Shown: in pieces, positions 2,657 to 19,315 of the stretch | Layout: each line of letters begins with the position of its first letter | How positions within the stretch are numbered: the first letter of the stretch is position 1 | Source of the DNA: Candidatus Latescibacterota bacterium | GTDB lineage: Bacteria > Latescibacterota > UBA2968 > UBA8231 | Direction: 5' to 3' | Assembly: GCA_965242865.1 (NCBI GenBank) | Contig: CBDETK010000012.1 | Location: 1-21,965, forward strand | DNA: 21,965 nt | Made by a program: the position numbers and the translations under genes | Notes under the pieces: model-generated | Told to the model about the DNA's origin: nothing | The model's database searches: none | The model's input: only the letters and a program-made list of their open reading frames with translations

Positions 2657-2938
2657 GTGAAGCCTTCCGTCAGCGTACGCCAAGCGCGCCGCAACTACCA
2701 GCTTCCGCGCTGGCGGCAGCTGCGGCGGCAGGTGTTTGAGCGCGACGGCTGGCGCTGCCGCCAGTGCGGGCGGGCCGGTCGATTGGAGTGCGATCATATC
2801 CGCAACTGGCGCGAAGGCGGCCCCTTCTGGTCGATGCACAATTTGCAGGCGCTGTGTAGGGGGTGCCATATTGAAAAGACGAGCCGCGAGGTGAAAGCGC
2901 GTAAACTCCAGTGGGACGATAGGTTGCAGGGGCTATGA
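2657..2938 (+). CDS. HNH endonuclease (HK97 gp74-like packaging cofactor)
   Basis: RWRQLRRQVFERDGWRCRQC...ECDHI...GG...NLQALCRGCHIEKT, adjacent to TerL. Confidence 0.93.
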   Translation: MKPSVSVRQARRNYQLPRWRQLRRQVFERDGWRCRQCGRAGRLECDHIRNWREGGPFWSMHNLQALCRGCHIEKTSREVKARKLQWDDRLQGL

Positions 2939-3984
2939 CGGAAGCAGTTCAGCCGCTTGATACAGTGCTGACGTGGAAGGACGTCGGGGATGGGGCGCCA
3001 GCGCAGGGCCTGATTGTCGAGGTAGGCGAAGGGGACGCAGAGCCGGCAGTCACCGGGAGAGAGGTGCGTGTTACGCCCGAGTTTGTGTTTAGCGGGGGCG
3101 TACAAGAAATGAGATTTCCGACTCGGCCGCAGGACCTGGCGGTGACAGATCCTATCCGAGTCACGGCCGGCAACTCCATATATTTAGCCGGGCATTCTGT
3201 GAATTCTATTGCTGAGTGGTATATAGCGGTCCAGTTAAACGCCGCGGTGCTTAGCGATACGAGCGCGGCTGTAAGAACGTTGGTCGAGGCCACCGGCACA
3301 GCCGGCACCGTCTTGCAGAATCCGCCCGCTCTTATCGGACTCAATATTGGTCCAAATTCGCCGTTGCCGAGCTACGTTATCGCGGCCGCCGGCCTGTCGC
3401 CGGGGGCGACCTTTCCAGACAATCAAGAGGTCGTCACCACGCTAAATTTGAGCTGGAACGGCCTCAACAGTTTTAACGATAGAATCCGGGGCACCCACTT
3501 GCTGGCGATTAAGCGGCCCATTGAAATTCGATACTTTGCGAACCACCGCTTCCTCGTTCTGCCAATCGCCAATAGCGACATCATATTTTCGTCGCGTTCG
3601 CGCCGCTCGGGCTTATCTGATTATAGAAGCAGGACGCCCATCCCAGGGACGCTGACGGCCCTGCCCGTGAATTGGACCTATCAAGGCGCGCCCACCGTTA
3701 GCCCTGAAGGTCCTTTCACGGCGCGCCGCCTGTTTGCTCGACGCGACGACAGCCAGGTCGAAACCGTCAATTACTCGACGGATGATGATGGCAATACAGT
3801 CGCCACGGTCCGAAGGGCTACCGATTTTATCGTCCGGCGCGACACCATCCCGCCGGTCAGTGCGCTACTTTCCGAGTTCGACACGTGGGACGGCAGCCGC
3901 CCGGTCTGGAGCGTCGAAACCGTCGAACATCTCGACCGCGCTCGCTTTGCTCGACTGAGGTGTTCCGAATTTGTTGTTGTGTAA
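2935..3984 (+). CDS. Putative head-closure/stopper (SPP1 gp16-like) protein with a large inserted domain, 349 aa
   Basis: N-terminal LDTVLTW and C-terminal LFARR...TDFIVRR...WSVETVEHLDRARFARLRCSE resemble the head-tail joining family pattern. ATGA overlap with HNH. The CDS is solid; the function is inferred. Confidence 0.55.
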   Translation: MTEAVQPLDTVLTWKDVGDGAPAQGLIVEVGEGDAEPAVTGREVRVTPEFVFSGGVQEMRFPTRPQDLAVTDPIRVTAGNSIYLAGHSVNSIAEWYIAVQLNAAVLSDTSAAVRTLVEATGTAGTVLQNPPALIGLNIGPNSPLPSYVIAAAGLSPGATFPDNQEVVTTLNLSWNGLNSFNDRIRGTHLLAIKRPIEIRYFANHRFLVLPIANSDIIFSSRSRRSGLSDYRSRTPIPGTLTALPVNWTYQGAPTVSPEGPFTARRLFARRDDSQVETVNYSTDDDGNTVATVRRATDFIVRRDTIPPVSALLSEFDTWDGSRPVWSVETVEHLDRARFARLRCSEFVVV

Positions 3985-4007
3985 CCCATTCACAGGAGGA
4001 CTTCCCT

Positions 4008-5279
4008 TTGACCCCTTTGCAGAAACTCCAAGTTCGGCAGTCCGAGCTTCGTCAGCGCGTCAACGATTTGTTGGGCAAGGACACGCTCGAAGACGCGGAG
4101 GCGACCGAGCTGGAAAAAGCCACCCGCGAGCTGCAGGACATCGAGCCGAAATTGCGGGCCGCGCTCGTAGCCCAAGACGACGGCTCGACCGCGGACGAAG
4201 ACCCCGCGGACGACGAACAAAAGCGCGACGACAACCCGGACGCCGAAGTCCGCGAGCTGCAGGAGCTATCCTGCCGCGCCCTGCTGTCCAACTTCGCCGT
4301 CTCAGCCCTCAGCCAGCGCAACGCCGAAGGCGCGGAAAAAGAGCTGGCCGAAGCGTTCAAAATCCCCGCGGACGCCGGCCACATCCCGCTGATTATGCTG
4401 GTCGCGCCCGAAGAGCGGGCCGATGCGGTCAGCGACTTCAATGCCGCGGACGCGCCGGTGTCTTCGGGCCGCTTCCTGGCGCGGGTGTTCACCACGTCGA
4501 TAGCCCGCTGGCTGGGCGTCACCTTCGAGAGCGTGCCCGTAGGCGAGCGCGTCCACACGGTGCTCACCGGCGGCGTCGATCCGGACACCGTAGCCCGCGC
4601 TGCCGCCCACGATGCGGACGCGGCCACGCTGTCGACGGTCGTCATGGATCCGCACCGCATCACGGCGCGGTACCTGTTCGAGCTCGAAGATTTGGCGCGG
4701 CTGCCGCAGTTGGAAGCGCGGCTGAGGCAGGACTTGTCGATGGCGTTGGCCAACGAGATGGACGATCAGATTTTCAACGGCAACGCCCAACTGATGTCCA
4801 ACGGCCTGTCCAACGCGCTGGCGGCCGGCCAGACCGAGACGGTAGCCACCTTCTCGACGGCGACCGCCGAAGACCTCCATGGGGACGTCCTCTCGGCGAT
4901 TGATGGGGTGTACGCGACCATGCTCGAGGACGTGCGGTTGGCGATGGATAGCAGCTCGCTGGTCGCATTCAAGAAGTTGGTCAATGCGGACGTGGAAATG
5001 TTCCTCTACGACATCCTCAAGATGCAGGGGCTGTCGATGAACTCGTCCAACCACATCGCGGGCGGGCAGCTGGCCGACGGCGACAAGTGGGCCTATGCCT
5101 CGAAGGGGCGCGGGCTGGCCGGCGCCGCGATCGCGGCCGTGTGGCCGTCCCTGCAGCTCATCCGCGATCCGTACACGGCCGCGGCCAAGGGCCAAGTCGC
5201 CCTCACCATCATTCAGATGTGGGATTTCGCCCTCATTCGCGCGGCCAACTTCCGCCGCTTCGTCGCGACCGCGAAGTGA
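4008..5279 (+). CDS. Major capsid protein, HK97 fold with N-terminal coiled-coil scaffold (delta) domain, 423 aa
   Basis: AGGAGG at 3994-3999 before TTG 4008. Contains LRQDLSMALANEMDDQIFNG and the C-terminal LIRDPYTAAAKGQVALTIIQMWDFALIRAANF. Confidence 0.92.
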   Translation: MTPLQKLQVRQSELRQRVNDLLGKDTLEDAEATELEKATRELQDIEPKLRAALVAQDDGSTADEDPADDEQKRDDNPDAEVRELQELSCRALLSNFAVSALSQRNAEGAEKELAEAFKIPADAGHIPLIMLVAPEERADAVSDFNAADAPVSSGRFLARVFTTSIARWLGVTFESVPVGERVHTVLTGGVDPDTVARAAAHDADAATLSTVVMDPHRITARYLFELEDLARLPQLEARLRQDLSMALANEMDDQIFNGNAQLMSNGLSNALAAGQTETVATFSTATAEDLHGDVLSAIDGVYATMLEDVRLAMDSSSLVAFKKLVNADVEMFLYDILKMQGLSMNSSNHIAGGQLADGDKWAYASKGRGLAGAAIAAVWPSLQLIRDPYTAAAKGQVALTIIQMWDFALIRAANFRRFVATAK

Positions 5280-5824
5280 CCGCGGCCAAACAATCCGCCG
5301 CCCTGCCACTGGCCTTTACCCGCAACGAGAGCGGGGACCTAGCGAGGGGGTTAGGCACTGTGCGCGGGGCGGCTATTATCTGGGGGGACGTAGCCCGATT
5401 AGGCCGGGGCGCGTTTGCCTTGCGCGAGCAGTTCAAGCGCGGGGCGTTGACGCCCTACAACCGCGGGGTGATAGCGTCCGTCCAGCACGACCGCTCGCAA
5501 TTGCTGGCGCAATACCCTAACGGCGGCCTGCGGCTCGACAGCCGCGATCGCGGCTACTTCGTCGAAATTGATCTACCCGATACCACCGTGGGGCGCGATG
5601 CGGCCGCGCTCATCGACCGCGGGGCGCTTCGGGGCTTGTCGATTGAGTTTGTCGATGAGAAAATCCGTGACCGCGGCCACCGCGATATCGTCATCGAGCG
5701 GGCCACCATAACGGGCGTTTCCATCGTCGATCGGCCGGCCTATCCCCAATCGGAGATCGAGTTTATTCAACGTTGGCTCGACGCGCCGCCGGCGAAACCT
5801 TCACGGAGATCACGATGGCTCTAA
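5276..5824 (+). CDS. HK97-family prohead protease, 182 aa
   Basis: GTGA overlap with capsid stop. Motifs EQFKRGA, QHDR, LPDTTVGRD, GLSIEF and VSIVDRPAYP. Confidence 0.92.
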   Translation: MTAAKQSAALPLAFTRNESGDLARGLGTVRGAAIIWGDVARLGRGAFALREQFKRGALTPYNRGVIASVQHDRSQLLAQYPNGGLRLDSRDRGYFVEIDLPDTTVGRDAAALIDRGALRGLSIEFVDEKIRDRGHRDIVIERATITGVSIVDRPAYPQSEIEFIQRWLDAPPAKPSRRSRWL

Positions 5825-8385
5825 CCGTCGCTCAACTGCTCAACGCGATACGGGCCGCGCCCGAAGGCGAGGTCGTCAGCGCCCAACTGACGGCGATTGG
5901 CACGCGCCTGTTGGCGGTCGGGCGTGCGCTGGTCGATACCTACGCGCCGCTGGCCCCCGAAGACGTGCGCGACGAGGCGGTTATTAGGGTGGCTGGCTAT
6001 CTCTACGACGCGCCCAACGTGACGCGCTCTGGGGTGGCCTGGAACGAAAGCGGAGCGCACGCGCTGGTCGACCCGTGGGTACAGCGCGGCGTTGCGCCGG
6101 TCGATTTTGACTTGACGGCCGTGGCCGCGGCCAGCCAGGGCGCGGGCGTGGACGAAGATGCGGTCGAAGCGATTGTGCGGCGGCTGGTTGCCGACTGGGC
6201 CGAAGCCGATAGTTCGGCTGCCGTCCCAGAAGCGAAGCTGCCCAGCGATTCAACCGCGTTCATCGAACTGGGCAGCTTTGTGTTCAATGCCTCTGGCACC
6301 ACGTTCGTAGACAGCAATATTGCTCTGCCGGCTGCCGGCTGGATTATAATCGACTTCGATGGGGGCCGAACGTTTTGGATTGACAGCGCTAAGTTCCGAC
6401 TGGGCCGCGCCCAAGTCGCAGGCGCTGCGCCGGCTGCCGGGGATTCGCTTCAATTTCCCGGTGCCATCGGGCATGGCTCCGTCTTTATTGATATTTGGCT
6501 GGGCCACACCGCCGCTCAAAACATCTTGGTCAGCAATCGAAGGGGCTCAGGTGCGACCGGGTTTAGTGTCTATCGCGTATCGATTGGCTCCAGTAGCGGC
6601 GGTTTAACCCAAGCGCAGGTCGATGCGCGCATTGGCGCCCGCGTCGAGGCGTGGGCTACGCAAGGCTCAGGGGATACGCCGGCCGCGGCCGATTTAGCCG
6701 ACAACCCGAACGTGGGCCAAGTGCTCAAGGCCGCGTCCGACGGCGACGCGGAATGGGCCAATGAATCCGGGGGCCTCACGCAAGCCCAGGTCGACGCCCG
6801 CGTGGCGGCCGTCGAGGGACCTGACCCAGCTACGTGGGCCGAAGACGGCAACGCGGACCAAATCCCCGCCAACAAGCTGGCCAACGCCCCGTCGGGCGGG
6901 GGCGGCCTCACTCAAGCGCAGGTCGACGCCCGGGTACAGGCCGGCGTCAAGGACAAAGCCGAGACCGGCGGCGGCAAGTGGGCCTACCCGGACGATTATA
7001 TCCTGCCGCAGGGCCTCGAAGCCCTGAACCGCGTCATGGCCGCCGGCGGCTGGGAAGCCCGTTCAGGCGACCTACAGGTGTCGGGGCCGCGGGCGGCGAC
7101 GTGGAACGCCAACCAAGCGACCGCGGCCTCCTTCGCCGACAGCGTCCAGCACGGCACGAGCCAAGAGAACTGGTATGTCTTAGTGCGGGCAGCCAACAGC
7201 TTAGGCAACGACCCCGCGAAATTTCGGCTCAACATCGACGACGACCTCTATCAGTCCCTGATGGGCGTGGCCGAAGTGTTCGACTCGGCTAATGCCATGT
7301 GGTACTATTTCGCCGTCCAAGTGTCGCGGCTGCCGGCCGGGGCTGTCGTCACAGCCGAGTATGACGAAGACGTTGAGCTGGGCGCGGATGTCGATGTCAA
7401 TGCGCCCAACGTCAAAGGCAATCTGACGGACGCTCGCATTGCCGCGGCCCGGGTGGACGGACTGGACGCGGCCATCGACCAGCGCGCCCCGCGGACCGCG
7501 GGGCTGGTAGAGCTGCACAACGGGGTGATGGGCGCGCCGACGCTGGTCGATCTGTCGGGCCACCGCTATTCCGTGCGGCAGGCGACGACGTTTGACCTCG
7601 ACGATCATCCGCAAGGGGTGTTCGAGTTCGAGGTGCGGCTGACGCTATCGGAAACCAGGGTCCCAATCAACCTGTCGCTTGCCAGCGACAGCGTCACTCG
7701 GACCGCGACGATTGAAGGGCTTTTGACGGCCACCGCGCTGAGCGCGTCCGCGGCCGCGGCCAACCCGGGGGCTGGCGTGGGACTCGTACAGGGGGAGGCG
7801 TCCCTGTACAGCGGCAGTGCCCTGCAAGGCAAGGTCAAATTCTACGTCGCGAAAGATGCCAACAACGTCGTCTGGAGCTATTTGGAGTACGATGGGGAGG
7901 CGACGGCGGTCAGTGGGAACGGGGCGTTGACGGCGAACTTGGTGTTCGACTTTCAGCGGTCGGATGGAGGGGGCGCCGCCGGCCCTAGTAGCCCCTGGAC
8001 GCTAGAGGACTCGAGCGTCAACAACTACAACATGAACCAGACAACTGGTAGAACACACACCGTAAACACCGATCTGGTCCTGCCTGCCGATTGGCAGAAT
8101 AAGTTTTTTATGATTACGAACTATAACGGCCCGACCTTTTTCTTCCGTGGTGGTGACTCTGCCCTAGTCGGTGGCTATGTCAGCTCGTCGCCTAGGAGGG
8201 TGCAAATTTGGGATTCAGAGGTGTCTTCGCTCTATATCGGCCGCACGTCTGCGGCCCTGCCTCGAAACCTGAGCTTTTACTCGAGCAGTAAAAGGCGTAG
8301 TGGGCCGACCTCTGGATCCAATGCACAGTACATGAGGATACTCATATCGCAGCCCCGGCTGTATTCGCAAGTGCTGCCGACGTAA
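5815..8385 (+). CDS. Head-tail adaptor (HK97 gp6/SPP1 gp15-like) N-terminal domain fused to a long fibre/adhesin-like extension, 856 aa
   Basis: GGAGA before ATG 5815. The first ~92 aa fit the gp6 pattern (RLLAVGRALVDTYAP.APEDVRDEAVIRVAGYLYD...ALVDPW). The remainder is G/A/S-rich with repeated linkers and beta-rich blocks. Confidence 0.75.
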   Translation: MALTVAQLLNAIRAAPEGEVVSAQLTAIGTRLLAVGRALVDTYAPLAPEDVRDEAVIRVAGYLYDAPNVTRSGVAWNESGAHALVDPWVQRGVAPVDFDLTAVAAASQGAGVDEDAVEAIVRRLVADWAEADSSAAVPEAKLPSDSTAFIELGSFVFNASGTTFVDSNIALPAAGWIIIDFDGGRTFWIDSAKFRLGRAQVAGAAPAAGDSLQFPGAIGHGSVFIDIWLGHTAAQNILVSNRRGSGATGFSVYRVSIGSSSGGLTQAQVDARIGARVEAWATQGSGDTPAAADLADNPNVGQVLKAASDGDAEWANESGGLTQAQVDARVAAVEGPDPATWAEDGNADQIPANKLANAPSGGGGLTQAQVDARVQAGVKDKAETGGGKWAYPDDYILPQGLEALNRVMAAGGWEARSGDLQVSGPRAATWNANQATAASFADSVQHGTSQENWYVLVRAANSLGNDPAKFRLNIDDDLYQSLMGVAEVFDSANAMWYYFAVQVSRLPAGAVVTAEYDEDVELGADVDVNAPNVKGNLTDARIAAARVDGLDAAIDQRAPRTAGLVELHNGVMGAPTLVDLSGHRYSVRQATTFDLDDHPQGVFEFEVRLTLSETRVPINLSLASDSVTRTATIEGLLTATALSASAAAANPGAGVGLVQGEASLYSGSALQGKVKFYVAKDANNVVWSYLEYDGEATAVSGNGALTANLVFDFQRSDGGGAAGPSSPWTLEDSSVNNYNMNQTTGRTHTVNTDLVLPADWQNKFFMITNYNGPTFFFRGGDSALVGGYVSSSPRRVQIWDSEVSSLYIGRTSAALPRNLSFYSSSKRRSGPTSGSNAQYMRILISQPRLYSQVLPT
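6598..6936 (+). repeat. Three copies of the coding repeat GGLTQAQVDAR(I/V)
   Basis: At 6598-6633, 6769-6804 and 6901-6936, with synonymous divergence between copies. Confidence 0.9.
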
Positions 8386-8810
8386 TGGCCAACCCTACCC
8401 TTTTTAATCGAGCCGTCCGCGACATCGTTTGGGACGAGATGAAAAACGGGCGCACCGGCTTGGAGCTGGTAGCCAGCATGCCCGAACGCACGGGCAATCT
8501 GAAACGGTCGTACCGGGTCACTCGGCCCAACAGCCGCACGGTGCGCGTTTCGTTCCCCGGAGCGGATTATTTGGTTCTGCCGGTCATACGTGTCCGGTTC
8601 AACGAAAAAAATCAGCGGCTGGCTGCGGCGGTGTTCGACGCGGAGCGCTTGGCTGTTCGCCGTCGCCAGAGCGACATCGCCCAAGCCGTCTTTATGTTCT
8701 TGGGCGCTCACTTCGCTCGAGAATTTTCTCAAGCGAGCGACCCCAACTTCTTCTTCCGTATCAACAGACAGCTGCGCTTCGCGGGGCGCACCGTAAACCT
8801 CACGAGGTGA
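8385..8810 (+). CDS. HK97 gp10-like neck/tail-completion protein, 141 aa
   Basis: MPERTGNLKRSYRV matches the P-x-x-TG-x-L-x-x-S motif. TAATG overlap with the upstream gene. Confidence 0.6.
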   Translation: MANPTLFNRAVRDIVWDEMKNGRTGLELVASMPERTGNLKRSYRVTRPNSRTVRVSFPGADYLVLPVIRVRFNEKNQRLAAAVFDAERLAVRRRQSDIAQAVFMFLGAHFAREFSQASDPNFFFRINRQLRFAGRTVNLTR

Positions 8811-8813
8811 AAA

Positions 8814-8945
8814 ATGGGCGATTGGCTCCTCCAAGAAGGCATTGACCTGTTCGACGTGCTCACCGTGGTCTGCACGGCCATGTTGACGAAGTTGATACAC
8901 GCCGAGCGTCACCGCCGCAAGCGCGAGCGGAAGCATCACAAGTGA
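8814..8945 (+). CDS. 43-aa putative single-pass membrane peptide (holin candidate), not in the ORF track
   Basis: GAGGTG at 8804-8809 before ATG. Translation: MGDWLLQEGIDLFDVLTVVCTAMLTKLIHAERHRRKRERKHHK. It fills the gap exactly, with a GTGA overlap into portal. Confidence 0.65.
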   Translation: MGDWLLQEGIDLFDVLTVVCTAMLTKLIHAERHRRKRERKHHK

Positions 8946-10066
8946 AGGCCCTCGATTGGTTTCGGCCCGCGGTCCTCCGCCAGCGCGTCCATCAACTCGC
9001 GCTCGCCGAGTGGCGCGCCATTTCCTTCTCCTCCGCCATCGAGCGCGCCGTCGAGGAGCAGGCCCAAGCCAGCGGCGAAGCCATCCGCGCGGGGCTGGCT
9101 GCCCAAGAAGCCTGCGCCGGTCTCTGGGAGCGCGCGTTTGCCTCCGCGACCGTGCGCGGGCGCCGAGCGCAGGGCGTGTGCGGCCCGTCGATGCTCGCGC
9201 TGGTAGCCCGCGAATTTGTCTATACGGGCGAAAGCTGTTGGCTGTTGGAGGTGCTCGATGATGGGATGCTGGCCGCTGGGATTGCTTCGTCGTGGGAGGT
9301 CAACGGCCCGGGCGTCTATCCCCAGCGCTGGCGCTATCGGCTCGACGTGCTGGGGCCTTCGGGCAACCGCACGCGCCGCGCGAACTGGGATGGCGTGCTG
9401 CATTTTATGATTGGCCGCCGCCCTGAGCAGCCCTGGAAGGGCCAAGCCCCGCTGGAGCGCGCATCGGCTACCCAACGTCTAGCCAACCTGCTGGAGACGC
9501 GGCTGGGCGAAGAAGCGGCCGCCCAGGTAGGCAATATCATTGCCTTGCCGCGCGACCCATCCCCGCGGCAAAAGCCCGACGGCACGATGTACGATCCGCT
9601 GGAAGACACCCGCAAAGCACTAGGCAGTATCCGCGGCAAAACGGTGCTCGTCGAGACGACGGCCAGCGGCTGGGGCGAAGGCCGCTTTTCCGCGCCGCGG
9701 CAGGACTGGACACCCCAGCGGATAGGCCCCAATCCCCCCGACAGCCTAGGGACGCTCCGCGTAGAAGTCAGCCGCATCATCACCGCGGCGTTGGGCGTAC
9801 CGCCCGCGTTACTCGAAGAAAGTTCGGACGGAACCAGCCAGCGCGAGAGCTGGCGACGCTTCCTGCATGGCACGATTCAGCCCGTAGCTGAAATCGTAGC
9901 TGAAGAGCTGTCGATCAAGCTGGACGAGCGCGTGCAACTCAATTTCGACCGCCTGTTCGCGTCCGACTTAAGCGGTCGTGCACGTGCGTTTCAGAGTATG
10001 GTTGGGGGGGGTATGGCGGTGGATAAAGCGGCGGCCCTTTCGGGCCTAATGGAACAAGAGGCATGA
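8942..10066 (+). CDS. Portal protein (HK97-like), 374 aa
   Basis: REFVYTGESCW, VLHF...GQAPL, ITAALGVPPALL and FLHGTIQPVAEIVAEELSIKL follow the HK97 portal pattern. Confidence 0.9.
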   Translation: MKALDWFRPAVLRQRVHQLALAEWRAISFSSAIERAVEEQAQASGEAIRAGLAAQEACAGLWERAFASATVRGRRAQGVCGPSMLALVAREFVYTGESCWLLEVLDDGMLAAGIASSWEVNGPGVYPQRWRYRLDVLGPSGNRTRRANWDGVLHFMIGRRPEQPWKGQAPLERASATQRLANLLETRLGEEAAAQVGNIIALPRDPSPRQKPDGTMYDPLEDTRKALGSIRGKTVLVETTASGWGEGRFSAPRQDWTPQRIGPNPPDSLGTLRVEVSRIITAALGVPPALLEESSDGTSQRESWRRFLHGTIQPVAEIVAEELSIKLDERVQLNFDRLFASDLSGRARAFQSMVGGGMAVDKAAALSGLMEQEA

Positions 10067-11421: not shown

Positions 11422-11505
11422 GGGACGGCGGGGGCGGCGGCGGGGACCCCTGCGGCGGTCGCGCCTATGGGGGACAAACCGCGCACGGGGGACACGCGCT
11501 TTCAC
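11421..11505 (+). other. G-rich segment upstream of terL, candidate cos/packaging site
   Basis: Four GGGGAC motifs (11421, 11442, 11470, 11488). 11425-11505 is absent from copy 1. Confidence 0.45.
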
Positions 11506-15784: not shown

Positions 15785-16329
15785 CCGCGGCCAAACAATC
15801 CGCCGCCCTGCCACTGGCCTTTACCCGCAACGAGAGCGGGGACCTAGCGAGGGGGTTAGGCACTGTGCGCGGGGCGGCTATTATCTGGGGGGACGTAGCC
15901 CGATTAGGCCGGGGCGCGTTTGCCTTGCGCGAGCAGTTCAAGCGCGGGGCGTTGACGCCCTACAACCGCGGGGTGATAGCGTCCGTCCAGCACGACCGCT
16001 CGCAATTGCTGGCGCAATACCCTAACGGCGGCCTGCGGCTCGACAGCCGCGATCGCGGCTACTTCGTCGAAATTGATCTACCCGATACCACCGTGGGGCG
16101 CGATGCGGCCGCGCTCATCGACCGCGGGGCGCTTCGGGGCTTGTCGATTGAGTTTGTCGATGAGAAAATCCGTGACCGCGGCCACCGCGATATCGTCATC
16201 GAGCGGGCCACCATAACGGGCGTTTCCATCGTCGATCGGCCGGCCTATCCCCAATCGGAGATCGAGTTTATTCAACGTTGGCTCGACGCGCCGCCGGCGA
16301 AACCTTCACGGAGATCACGATGGCTCTAA
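15781..16329 (+). CDS. Prohead protease (copy 2)
   Basis: Identical to 5276..5824. Confidence 0.92.
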   Translation: MTAAKQSAALPLAFTRNESGDLARGLGTVRGAAIIWGDVARLGRGAFALREQFKRGALTPYNRGVIASVQHDRSQLLAQYPNGGLRLDSRDRGYFVEIDLPDTTVGRDAAALIDRGALRGLSIEFVDEKIRDRGHRDIVIERATITGVSIVDRPAYPQSEIEFIQRWLDAPPAKPSRRSRWL

Positions 16330-18890
16330 CCGTCGCTCAACTGCTCAACGCGATACGGGCCGCGCCCGAAGGCGAGGTCGTCAGCGCCCAACTGACGGCG
16401 ATTGGCACGCGCCTGTTGGCGGTCGGGCGTGCGCTGGTCGATACCTACGCGCCGCTGGCCCCCGAAGACGTGCGCGACGAGGCGGTTATTAGGGTGGCTG
16501 GCTATCTCTACGACGCGCCCAACGTGACGCGCTCTGGGGTGGCCTGGAACGAAAGCGGAGCGCACGCGCTGGTCGACCCGTGGGTACAGCGCGGCGTTGC
16601 GCCGGTCGATTTTGACTTGACGGCCGTGGCCGCGGCCAGCCAGGGCGCGGGCGTGGACGAAGATGCGGTCGAAGCGATTGTGCGGCGGCTGGTTGCCGAC
16701 TGGGCCGAAGCCGATAGTTCGGCTGCCGTCCCAGAAGCGAAGCTGCCCAGCGATTCAACCGCGTTCATCGAACTGGGCAGCTTTGTGTTCAATGCCTCTG
16801 GCACCACGTTCGTAGACAGCAATATTGCTCTGCCGGCTGCCGGCTGGATTATAATCGACTTCGATGGGGGCCGAACGTTTTGGATTGACAGCGCTAAGTT
16901 CCGACTGGGCCGCGCCCAAGTCGCAGGCGCTGCGCCGGCTGCCGGGGATTCGCTTCAATTTCCCGGTGCCATCGGGCATGGCTCCGTCTTTATTGATATT
17001 TGGCTGGGCCACACCGCCGCTCAAAACATCTTGGTCAGCAATCGAAGGGGCTCAGGTGCGACCGGGTTTAGTGTCTATCGCGTATCGATTGGCTCCAGTA
17101 GCGGCGGTTTAACCCAAGCGCAGGTCGATGCGCGCATTGGCGCCCGCGTCGAGGCGTGGGCTACGCAAGGCTCAGGGGATACGCCGGCCGCGGCCGATTT
17201 AGCCGACAACCCGAACGTGGGCCAAGTGCTCAAGGCCGCGTCCGACGGCGACGCGGAATGGGCCAATGAATCCGGGGGCCTCACGCAAGCCCAGGTCGAC
17301 GCCCGCGTGGCGGCCGTCGAGGGACCTGACCCAGCTACGTGGGCCGAAGACGGCAACGCGGACCAAATCCCCGCCAACAAGCTGGCCAACGCCCCGTCGG
17401 GCGGGGGCGGCCTCACTCAAGCGCAGGTCGACGCCCGGGTACAGGCCGGCGTCAAGGACAAAGCCGAGACCGGCGGCGGCAAGTGGGCCTACCCGGACGA
17501 TTATATCCTGCCGCAGGGCCTCGAAGCCCTGAACCGCGTCATGGCCGCCGGCGGCTGGGAAGCCCGTTCAGGCGACCTACAGGTGTCGGGGCCGCGGGCG
17601 GCGACGTGGAACGCCAACCAAGCGACCGCGGCCTCCTTCGCCGACAGCGTCCAGCACGGCACGAGCCAAGAGAACTGGTATGTCTTAGTGCGGGCAGCCA
17701 ACAGCTTAGGCAACGACCCCGCGAAATTTCGGCTCAACATCGACGACGACCTCTATCAGTCCCTGATGGGCGTGGCCGAAGTGTTCGACTCGGCTAATGC
17801 CATGTGGTACTATTTCGCCGTCCAAGTGTCGCGGCTGCCGGCCGGGGCTGTCGTCACAGCCGAGTATGACGAAGACGTTGAGCTGGGCGCGGATGTCGAT
17901 GTCAATGCGCCCAACGTCAAAGGCAATCTGACGGACGCTCGCATTGCCGCGGCCCGGGTGGACGGACTGGACGCGGCCATCGACCAGCGCGCCCCGCGGA
18001 CCGCGGGGCTGGTAGAGCTGCACAACGGGGTGATGGGCGCGCCGACGCTGGTCGATCTGTCGGGCCACCGCTATTCCGTGCGGCAGGCGACGACGTTTGA
18101 CCTCGACGATCATCCGCAAGGGGTGTTCGAGTTCGAGGTGCGGCTGACGCTATCGGAAACCAGGGTCCCAATCAACCTGTCGCTTGCCAGCGACAGCGTC
18201 ACTCGGACCGCGACGATTGAAGGGCTTTTGACGGCCACCGCGCTGAGCGCGTCCGCGGCCGCGGCCAACCCGGGGGCTGGCGTGGGACTCGTACAGGGGG
18301 AGGCGTCCCTGTACAGCGGCAGTGCCCTGCAAGGCAAGGTCAAATTCTACGTCGCGAAAGATGCCAACAACGTCGTCTGGAGCTATTTGGAGTACGATGG
18401 GGAGGCGACGGCGGTCAGTGGGAACGGGGCGTTGACGGCGAACTTGGTGTTCGACTTTCAGCGGTCGGATGGAGGGGGCGCCGCCGGCCCTAGTAGCCCC
18501 TGGACGCTAGAGGACTCGAGCGTCAACAACTACAACATGAACCAGACAACTGGTAGAACACACACCGTAAACACCGATCTGGTCCTGCCTGCCGATTGGC
18601 AGAATAAGTTTTTTATGATTACGAACTATAACGGCCCGACCTTTTTCTTCCGTGGTGGTGACTCTGCCCTAGTCGGTGGCTATGTCAGCTCGTCGCCTAG
18701 GAGGGTGCAAATTTGGGATTCAGAGGTGTCTTCGCTCTATATCGGCCGCACGTCTGCGGCCCTGCCTCGAAACCTGAGCTTTTACTCGAGCAGTAAAAGG
18801 CGTAGTGGGCCGACCTCTGGATCCAATGCACAGTACATGAGGATACTCATATCGCAGCCCCGGCTGTATTCGCAAGTGCTGCCGACGTAA
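16320..18890 (+). CDS. Head-tail adaptor / fibre fusion (copy 2)
   Basis: Identical to 5815..8385. Confidence 0.75.
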   Translation: MALTVAQLLNAIRAAPEGEVVSAQLTAIGTRLLAVGRALVDTYAPLAPEDVRDEAVIRVAGYLYDAPNVTRSGVAWNESGAHALVDPWVQRGVAPVDFDLTAVAAASQGAGVDEDAVEAIVRRLVADWAEADSSAAVPEAKLPSDSTAFIELGSFVFNASGTTFVDSNIALPAAGWIIIDFDGGRTFWIDSAKFRLGRAQVAGAAPAAGDSLQFPGAIGHGSVFIDIWLGHTAAQNILVSNRRGSGATGFSVYRVSIGSSSGGLTQAQVDARIGARVEAWATQGSGDTPAAADLADNPNVGQVLKAASDGDAEWANESGGLTQAQVDARVAAVEGPDPATWAEDGNADQIPANKLANAPSGGGGLTQAQVDARVQAGVKDKAETGGGKWAYPDDYILPQGLEALNRVMAAGGWEARSGDLQVSGPRAATWNANQATAASFADSVQHGTSQENWYVLVRAANSLGNDPAKFRLNIDDDLYQSLMGVAEVFDSANAMWYYFAVQVSRLPAGAVVTAEYDEDVELGADVDVNAPNVKGNLTDARIAAARVDGLDAAIDQRAPRTAGLVELHNGVMGAPTLVDLSGHRYSVRQATTFDLDDHPQGVFEFEVRLTLSETRVPINLSLASDSVTRTATIEGLLTATALSASAAAANPGAGVGLVQGEASLYSGSALQGKVKFYVAKDANNVVWSYLEYDGEATAVSGNGALTANLVFDFQRSDGGGAAGPSSPWTLEDSSVNNYNMNQTTGRTHTVNTDLVLPADWQNKFFMITNYNGPTFFFRGGDSALVGGYVSSSPRRVQIWDSEVSSLYIGRTSAALPRNLSFYSSSKRRSGPTSGSNAQYMRILISQPRLYSQVLPT

Positions 18891-19315
18891 TGGCCAACCC
18901 TACCCTTTTTAATCGAGCCGTCCGCGACATCGTTTGGGACGAGATGAAAAACGGGCGCACCGGCTTGGAGCTGGTAGCCAGCATGCCCGAACGCACGGGC
19001 AATCTGAAACGGTCGTACCGGGTCACTCGGCCCAACAGCCGCACGGTGCGCGTTTCGTTCCCCGGAGCGGATTATTTGGTTCTGCCGGTCATACGTGTCC
19101 GGTTCAACGAAAAAAATCAGCGGCTGGCTGCGGCGGTGTTCGACGCGGAGCGCTTGGCTGTTCGCCGTCGCCAGAGCGACATCGCCCAAGCCGTCTTTAT
19201 GTTCTTGGGCGCTCACTTCGCTCGAGAATTTTCTCAAGCGAGCGACCCCAACTTCTTCTTCAGTATCAACAGACAGCTGCGCGTCGCGGGGCGCACCGTA
19301 AACCTCACGAGGTGA
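18890..19315 (+). CDS. HK97 gp10-like protein (copy 2; two substitutions)
   Basis: As 8385..8810 except FFFSINRQLRVAG versus FFFRINRQLRFAG. Confidence 0.6.
   Translation: MANPTLFNRAVRDIVWDEMKNGRTGLELVASMPERTGNLKRSYRVTRPNSRTVRVSFPGADYLVLPVIRVRFNEKNQRLAAAVFDAERLAVRRRQSDIAQAVFMFLGAHFAREFSQASDPNFFFSINRQLRVAGRTVNLTR

Follow-up and report, generated by a model that had tools for sequence, protein, structure and literature searches.

A putative head-tail adaptor with a long, exchangeable, fiber-like extension in a small capsid-forming element of Latescibacterota

The assembly of a Candidatus Latescibacterota bacterium (GenBank GCA_965242865.1) consists of 13 contigs, among them a chromosome of 5.6 Mb (C13) and a much shorter contig, CBDETK010000012.1 (C12), whose entire length of 21,965 bp is the window considered here. 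In the window, a 10,505-bp unit resembling capsid-forming phage satellites is present 2.09 times over, head to tail. Between its protease and portal genes, the unit carries a gene encoding a protein of 856 amino acids (positions 5815-8385 in the first copy). Residues 1-97 of this protein very probably constitute a head-tail adaptor of the Ad1 type, the class of HK97 gp6 and SPP1 gp15, and the much longer remainder is probably a modular fiber, judging from the plan shared by the family and from the relatives. Ad1 adaptors are proteins of about 100 amino acids that form a dodecameric ring under the portal. We lean toward the view, without pressing it, that the adaptor ring of this element shows up to 12 variable, covalently attached fibers on the neck of a satellite-like particle that forms a capsid, where they would serve in attachment.

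The gene and its product

Two other contigs of the same assembly, C9 and C6, carry variants of the unit and serve as comparisons throughout. The gene is laid out as follows (E values for the linker motif are from a profile hidden Markov model, HMM):

5815-8385, + strand: whole gene, adaptor domain plus modular extension, 856 amino acids plus stop; identical copy at 16320-18890
5815-6105, + strand: N-terminal adaptor-family domain, residues 1-97, assigned through transitive homology only; 98-100% identical to C9
6160-6243, + strand: linker motif copy 1, residues 116-143 (E 4.9e-9), immediately following the adaptor domain, a placement seen in many relatives
6244-6600, + strand: first beta-rich module (residues 144-262), which differs between co-assembled variants and is 30-60% identical to C9 and C6
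6601-6969, + strand: linker motif copies 2-4, residues 263-299, 320-361 and 364-385 (E 1.7e-14, 2.4e-21 and 5e-8)
6970-7974, + strand: central modules, residues 386-720; 72-82% identity to C6, 34-78% to C9; weakly similar to P0091 (BLASTP E 1.5e-10)
7975-8382, + strand: C-terminal tip (residues 721-856), where variation is greatest; 8-28% identity to C9 and C6

The frame is open from 5773 to 8385, and its ATG at 5815 is preceded, 6 bases upstream, by GGAG. Homologues begin with the identical residues MALTV, which supports this start. The gene accounts for 24.5% of the unit (2,571 of 10,505 bases), close to the quarter estimated in the preliminary description of the sequence. The long modular region said there to follow the N-terminus in frame does so, the single frame containing four copies of a motif of about 40 amino acids that alternate with beta-rich blocks. 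The GC fraction at third codon positions (GC3) is 0.64-0.83 and even over the full frame, and the ratio of nonsynonymous to synonymous divergence (dN/dS) relative to the two co-assembled variants is 0.08-0.58 in all six segments compared, indicating purifying selection. The open frame, the start codon with its Shine-Dalgarno sequence, the identity of the two copies, the even GC3, and the low dN/dS together show that the coding region is genuine and under selection, being neither a chance open reading frame nor a fusion made by assembly.

It is hardly credible that two genes were merged by an error of assembly or sequencing: the contig is indeed a concatemer whose copies differ by an 81-bp indel, and C9 has frame breaks in other genes, but both copies of the gene in the window are identical, fused forms of about 610 to 944 amino acids occur in other assemblies, and purifying selection spans the junction as well as the extension. 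A separate fiber produced from an internal start or a frameshift was also considered and rejected, as no in-frame start preceded by a Shine-Dalgarno sequence lies between residues 60 and 300.

A conserved anchor and an exchangeable tip

Across C12, C9 and C6, the portal, protease, terminase, endolysin and capsid proteins are 88-99.8% identical. The 856-amino-acid protein is 60-62% identical to its C9 and C6 variants, and two further proteins of the unit, of 349 and 141 amino acids, are 39-42% and 37-76% identical, respectively. Along the 856-amino-acid protein, identity falls from one end to the other: relative to C9, from 98-100% (residues 1-100) to 8-20% (after residue 700), and relative to C6, from 82-94% to 24-28%. 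At the level of DNA, there is no match to C9 beyond unit position 7448.

In three public sequencing runs, variant contigs (compared at 80% likeness, and as contigs only) swap segments inside the adaptor-fiber gene, inside the gene for the 349-amino-acid protein, and across the tip together with the gene for the 141-amino-acid protein. One variant contig has exchanged about 413 bases for 377 others in the copy-2 equivalent of the first beta-rich module. Dips in depth over the variable segments derive from contigs and were not used as evidence. Since synonymous divergence within the variable blocks exceeds 1, the differences appear to stem from swaps of old cassettes and not from fast point mutation. 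Receptor-binding proteins are typically marked by a conserved anchor and an exchangeable tip, and the protein encoded in the window has both, the anchor at its N-terminus and the tip at its C-terminus.

The N-terminal domain

The N-terminus had been described at the outset as gp6/gp15-like. That likeness holds by way of relatives and gene position rather than directly, as the copy in the window matches no Ad1 model. It does match, at E 1.2e-30, the profile of a large family, which, in a set of 1.84 billion clustered proteins, numbers 2,130 representatives at E up to 1e-3, with 1,310 of these at E up to 1e-10. The domain lies within 20 amino acids of the N-terminus in 166 of 176 family proteins collected, and in 41 of the 176 there is little beyond it; stand-alone forms of 94-110 amino acids are common. 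One short member, P0116, connects the family to known adaptors. Its residues 4-93 match phrog_40 ("head-tail adaptor Ad1") at E 8.7e-9, and it matches phrog_442 as well, while its identity to the window domain is 53% over 66 amino acids (E 5e-18). Three other short members match Ad1 or adaptor PHROGs at E 5e-4 to 6.5e-3 (among them P0173 at 5e-4 and P0097, with phrog_137, at 9e-4), and three long ones (P0150, P0175 and P0112, of 82) do so at E 8e-5 to 1e-3. Scanned singly at E up to 0.01, 4 of the 36 stand-alone members matched adaptor PHROGs. Also, when the domain alignment of 176 sequences was compared by hhalign with three phrog_40 proteins from the same phylum, the C-terminal halves were in register, at a weak E of 0.065.

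The position of the gene agrees with this assignment. Ad1 adaptors (HK97 gp6, SPP1 gp15; PHROG 40 and 137; Phage_connect_1) are encoded as domains of about 100 amino acids after the capsid and protease genes, and so it is in the window, where a domain of that size stands in a head module with genes for capsid, protease and portal. The gene is found between those for protease and portal in the window and in all nine relatives with readable neighbors (L009, L010, L011, L012, L015, L017, L018, L027 and L029). Because of transitive homology and gene position, the domain is taken to be of the Ad1 type. HK97 gp6, however, has 108 amino acids and no extension, whereas the chain in the window continues for 760 amino acids after the domain.

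Other searches with the family returned little. Matches of the N-terminal family to NCBIfam were at chance level only, tblastn with the N-terminal domain found nothing in 50,697 phage records, and the family profile found nothing in the record of HK97. A search of five related viral records with phrog_40 yielded no candidates. The best matches of P0116 in the phage records, at E 0.5 only, were Moraxella phage proteins encoded beside a coat gene. Ralstonia records of 12.9 kb that carry a distantly related terminase are without this adaptor family.

How widely the fusion is shared

That homologues share the fusion was a prediction of the preliminary description, and it has been borne out. Among the best 150 representatives of the domain, not selected by length, 101 extend more than 100 amino acids beyond it. 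By the length of what follows the domain, 31 representatives have at most 20 residues, 18 have 21-100, 47 have 101-300, 29 have 301-600, and 25 exceed 600, although some of the short lengths may reflect genes cut at the ends of contigs. Fused forms of 528-944 amino acids are found on independent contigs of 7.6-37 kb, several of which are 10.4-10.9 kb, and forms of about 610 to 944 amino acids on independent contigs of about 9.5-10.9 kb. Among relatives in IMG/VR, the open reading frames encoding the adaptor have lengths of 102, 766, 720, 107, 247 and 890 amino acids (the frame of 720 starts upstream of the domain match, so the product may be nearer 610). Two of the long-adaptor relatives, L010 and L011 (9.5 and 10.5 kb), carry direct terminal repeats and are therefore considered complete.

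Short and long forms are interspersed on a tree of the domain, with 29 changes between them as against 31-41 in 200 shuffles of the labels (the tree is weakly resolved). The interspersion suggests that extensions have been gained, lost or exchanged many times. A stand-alone adaptor of about 100 amino acids is found in L009, L012 (which also carries a tyrosine integrase), L017, and two genomes of the same bacterial family as the window, G103 and G105. In none of these five was a separate gene resembling the extension found. The extension thus looks like an optional add-on, not half of a split gene, and the fusion, being widespread, is no local accident of the kind that the preliminary description had allowed for.

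The integrated clusters in G103 (C1, about 1038745-1044549) and G105 (C3, about 2269953-2275744) are some 6 kb long. They consist of genes for terminase, HNH endonuclease, capsid, protease, the 102-amino-acid adaptor, a small protein, and portal, with neither an extension nor a variable protein in the slot.

What the extension is made of

Each linker motif comprises a helix-like stretch (GLTQAQVDARV) followed by a second stretch of the form DWAE..GN.D.IP..KL, and between the linkers of the window protein lie beta-rich blocks. Of the 176 family proteins, 47 carry the motif, often right after the adaptor domain and between modules, and the protein in the window follows the plan of its family in this alternation. 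Ten of the 82 extended relatives match PHROGs of the tail category. Five of them match phrog_892 ("tail fiber protein"), at E values down to 5.5e-28, and the remaining matches include families of tail fiber, tail collar and minor tail proteins. The members that match tail or virion-structural PHROGs include seven carriers of the linker motif. With some of the relatives that match tail PHROGs, the window protein has in common only the linker motif and weak local similarity. It is the family plan and these relatives that make the extension in the window probably a modular fiber.

The extension had at first been called "fiber/adhesin-like." The first part of the name stands, in view of the fiber PHROGs matched by relatives, the hypervariable tip, the lack of any tail gene found in the unit or its complete relatives, and the location of the arm in the adaptor of phage Sf6 (see Discussion). 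The second part, together with presence of the protein in particles, is best put conditionally: the extension may bind, and may be carried on the virion.

The 10,505-bp unit and its other genes

On the plus strand, the unit encodes, in order, large terminase, HNH endonuclease, the 349-amino-acid protein, capsid, protease, the 856-amino-acid protein, the 141-amino-acid protein, and portal. The minus strand carries genes for a zinc-ribbon protein of 96 amino acids and for a GH108 endolysin that includes a peptidoglycan-binding domain. In the first copy:

4-585, - strand: GH108 endolysin with peptidoglycan-binding domain (PF05838, PF09374, phrog_315)
892-2616, + strand: large terminase (phrog_9, E 1.6e-54; 27% identity to HK97-like terminases)
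2657-2938, + strand: HNH endonuclease (PF01844, phrog_589)
2935-3984, + strand: hypervariable 349-amino-acid protein between the HNH and capsid genes, of no known family (39-42% identity between variants)
3885-5279, + strand: HK97-fold major capsid protein (PF05065, E 2.2e-12; true start probably after 3984)
5087-5824, + strand: prohead serine protease, S78 (PF04586, E 2.3e-21)
8385-8810, + strand: 141-amino-acid protein adjoining the adaptor gene, of no known family (37-76% identity between variants)
8942-10066, + strand: portal protein (PF04860, E 3.3e-12)

No gene for tail, integrase or replication was recognized by Pfam and PHROGs among the 10 open reading frames of the unit, and no tail gene was found in the complete relatives with direct terminal repeats, L010 and L011. 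The window contains no tRNA and no Rfam family, and matches to promoters and terminators are at chance level.

The 141-amino-acid protein is homologous to proteins of 143 amino acids in L009 and 111 amino acids in L011, both encoded beside the adaptor. Its match to HK97 gp10 is confined to a motif of 25 amino acids (E 0.006), and PF04883 does not match it, finding only proteins of the phages on contigs C4 and C11 (see below). It may be a neck or connector protein. The 349-amino-acid protein is homologous to the first 283 or so residues of an 855-amino-acid protein of L009 (L009:1829-4396), which continues into three cadherin-like domains. Going by this homology, the gene is a second locus of the anchor-plus-display kind.

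The unit is present in five public runs from two studies, and no RNA dataset is listed among the public runs that contain it. Contigs that join the end of the unit to its start were found in 4 of 4 public runs, one of them weak (23 letters on the shorter side); such contigs are compatible with a molecule that is circular or concatemeric. Upstream of the terminase gene, copy 1 is missing (at 1000/1001) an 81-bp GC-rich segment that is present at 11425-11505 and again from 21930. It could be a cos or packaging region, or it could reflect a problem of assembly in GC-rich DNA.

The copies on C9 show a length difference similar to that of C12. Otherwise, the tandem copies in the window differ at only 2 bases, near the end of the gene for the 141-amino-acid protein (8385-8810 and 18890-19315), changing 2 residues. 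On C9, frame breaks in the genes for capsid and portal set the two copies apart. Both concatemer contigs, C9 (22,004 bp) and C12 (21,965 bp), end at about 2.1 units, or about 22 kb.

A link to the host, and the co-assembled phages

The chromosome carries a clustered regularly interspaced short palindromic repeat (CRISPR) array of 41 repeats (G000:C13:3522935-3525849). Three adjacent spacers (the third to fifth from the AT-rich end) have matches in the element, and two of the matches fall within the adaptor-fiber gene. Each protospacer is repeated in the second copy of the unit:

1381-1415: protospacer of spacer 3, in the terminase gene (32 of 35 bases)
5956-5990, + strand: protospacer of spacer 4, in the adaptor domain (32 of 35 bases)
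7780-7815, + strand: protospacer of spacer 5, in the extension (30 of 36 bases)

Two of the three have the 5' flank TGGCC in common. The mismatches could represent escape, or other variants could have been the source of the spacers. The matching spacers tie the element to this host lineage and indicate that the host treats it as an invader. A fourth spacer has a weak match (27-28 of 35) beside the 81-bp indel.

Fragments of tailed siphophages make up two other contigs of the assembly, C4 and C11, which carry genes for tape measure, Neck1, adaptor, capsid and terminase and are candidate tail donors. None of the CRISPR spacers matches either one. The minus strand of C4 (15891-15998) bears two repeats of the host type around a single spacer of 34 nucleotides, for which the only match found was C4 itself. 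The pair may be a phage-borne mini-array.

Discussion

If the protein acts as proposed, twelve adaptor domains would ring the portal after DNA is packaged. Their C-termini would leave the ring at the head-neck junction and give rise to as many as 12 covalently anchored arms, or to fewer bundles if the arms oligomerize, and these would amount to the element's own exchangeable device for attachment to the host surface. A tail borrowed from a co-resident phage, docked by means of the variable 141-amino-acid protein, would then deliver the DNA. Delivery by a borrowed helper tail is put forward tentatively, somewhat short of an even chance, and a particle truly without a tail seems to us rather doubtful. 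We infer from sequence all of the following: the fold of the adaptor, its incorporation into particles, its copy number, the target of the arms, and the involvement of a helper tail. That a C-terminal extension could run outward is made plausible by the adaptor of Sf6 (gp7), which is described as having a C-terminal whisker, or arm, at the head-neck junction that bridges neck and head.

Several findings weigh against this reading. Concerning the N-terminal domain, the sequence in the window has no relevant match in Pfam (E up to 10) or in PHROGs (E up to 1), its profile matches no PDB sequence, a search of the genome with PF05135 found nothing, and hhalign gives a probability of 0.2% for its relationship to HK97 gp6. 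HMMs of the family matched none of 94 open reading frames that included HK97 gp6 and three phrog_40 proteins, and the Ad1 PHROGs are reached by only a small minority of family members. Concerning the extension, no match was found in Pfam, PHROGs, PDB sequences or the 50,697 phage records. Scans by Pfam and PHROGs of the whole protein and of four pieces gave nothing relevant, full-length alignment to PDB sequences gave no match, nor did tblastn of the motif region with the phage records, and a search with residues 400-856 returned only three variants from its own assembly. Of the 82 extended relatives, 80 are without a Pfam match at E up to 1e-4. Because there is no direct homology, the label of fiber derives from architecture and relatives. 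Furthermore, L009, the closest relative in IMG/VR (70% identical in terminase), has a stand-alone adaptor of 102 amino acids, as do the integrated head-only clusters in the two genomes of the same bacterial family, which implies that the extension is dispensable for the formation of particles. Lastly, neither C4 nor C11 has any similarity to the extension or to the 141-amino-acid protein, and any helper is hypothetical.

Might the element be not a satellite but an autonomous, tail-less mini-virus? The collar, with the 141- and 349-amino-acid proteins, would then be the whole apparatus for adsorption and ejection, something like a minimal podovirus, and no helper tail would be called for. Neither the unit nor its complete relatives of 9.5 and 10.5 kb yielded a tail gene, the endolysin is of a kind that, in available accounts, the definition of capsid-forming islands excludes, and the three hypervariable genes could well form one apparatus. 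There is also precedent for small size. While the smallest tailed phages isolated are given as 11.6 kb, a survey of metagenomes (PMC13669383; Nat Commun 2026) reports "twilight-zone" genomes of 5-11.6 kb that encode an HK97-fold capsid protein, are complete with direct terminal repeats, and contain a tail gene in 23 of 536 cases. These resemble the element in size, capsid and scarcity of tail genes, though that report centers on members that lack portal and terminase and are encapsulin-like, and the word "adaptor" is absent from its main text. But no gene for replication, a holin, or a protein for channel formation or ejection was recognized in the unit, and L017, G103 and G105, having the 102-amino-acid adaptor and no large variable protein, would be left with no device for adsorption unless one were borrowed. 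Moreover, the 141-amino-acid protein varies much as the published accounts say of connectors that specify tails in capsid-forming islands. We judge a mini-virus of this sort unlikely. There is a small chance that the 10.5-kb units are complete, autonomous, tail-less viruses of double-stranded DNA, whose sole organ of adsorption is a 12-fold adaptor-fiber collar and whose host range is set by swaps of cassettes; if that were true, a tail-less collar particle would represent a virion plan so far undescribed among HK97-fold viruses.

Perhaps the extension has nothing to do with attachment, acting instead to stabilize or decorate the portal vertex, to govern assembly or size, or as a decoy against host defense. 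The extension in the window has no homology to any receptor-binding domain, collars without fibers are on record (that of phage Milano, for example, as its description has it), and the neighboring family of the 349-amino-acid protein likewise bears optional display domains. On the other hand, the gradient from anchor to swapped tip, together with the tail-fiber PHROGs matched by relatives, is what one usually sees in receptor-binding proteins, and structural cement proteins are normally conserved along with the capsid. A role apart from attachment is accordingly improbable.

It is also doubtful, and to our minds decidedly so, that the N-terminal domain anchors a fiber that docks somewhere other than the portal, with the PHROG matches misleading us. 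The failure of the window sequence to match an adaptor directly and of the family HMM to find HK97 gp6 and the three phrog_40 proteins would be understandable in that case. It would not be clear, however, why, in head-only sets with no alternative candidate for an adaptor, stand-alone forms of about 100 amino acids are encoded between protease and portal, or why P0116 matches phrog_40 over its full length.

The arms might, finally, bind a helper virion, so that satellite and helper enter a cell together. This very improbable idea comes by analogy from MiniFlayer, a satellite found in Streptomyces that, as described, encodes its own capsid, portal, terminases and adaptor, lacks integrase and primase, and uses short fibers in place of a tail to sit with its small capsid on the neck of its helper. 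The element, too, has no recognized genes for integrase or replication, and contigs of tailed phages are present in the same assembly. Against the analogy, the extension, the N-terminal domain and the portal have no tblastn match in the 50,697 phage records and no similarity to any protein of the MiniFlayer type, and hypervariable tips are better suited to diverse receptors on cell surfaces than to a conserved helper neck. The fiber of MiniFlayer, in the accounts at hand, also differs in being encoded by a separate gene and binding the helper's neck, its hosts are actinobacterial, and no sequence similarity to the element was detected.

To return to a satellite-like particle with a collar of fibers, among the closest known counterparts are the phage-inducible chromosomal islands that form capsids (cf-PICIs), as far as published accounts describe them. 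They are about 10 kb in size and encode their own capsid, protease, portal, adaptor, HNH endonuclease and large terminase with no tail module. The 10,505-bp unit has this size and gene set, except that a small terminase and a connector were not securely identified. The adaptor and connector genes of cf-PICIs are reported to vary between near-identical islands and to set tail specificity, and in the element it is likewise the extension of the adaptor and the 141-amino-acid protein that vary. There are differences as well. The unit, by Pfam and PHROGs over its 10 open reading frames, has no recognized modules for integrase, replication or regulation; it encodes a GH108 endolysin, whereas lytic genes are by the published description excluded from cf-PICIs; and unlike them, it is extrachromosomal or concatemeric in this assembly. 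Nor do the accounts of cf-PICIs available to us describe adaptors with fibers.

Fibers at the neck are known in other phages. Gp12 of phi29, the wac whiskers of T4, gp40 of XM1, and the neck fibers of Anabaena phage A-1(L) are described as fibers that spread outward where head and tail join, with a presumed role in sensing or binding the host. By the same descriptions they are separate proteins, docked noncovalently on a ring of the neck or collar, while the fiber of the element would be part of the same polypeptide as the adaptor. Copy number would also differ, 12 chains being proposed for the ring of the element in contrast to the 5 or 6 trimers of known neck fibers. A full-text search within one open-access library found no description of an adaptor fused to a fiber.

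The proposal lends itself to direct test, in that a few public samples contain the element in abundance, and the same assembly contains both a host chromosome with matching spacers and contigs of candidate helpers. The family is large, has scarcely any annotation in Pfam, and is absent from 50,697 sequenced phages, so the architecture may be common in uncultured lineages of soil and sediment while remaining unknown in the laboratory. Satellites that form capsids are believed to rely on borrowed tails to recognize their hosts. If the reading offered here is true, an adaptor with an exchangeable fiber would add a new way to build the neck of a phage, and it would give satellites, or tail-less mini-viruses, a determinant of host range that is independently their own.

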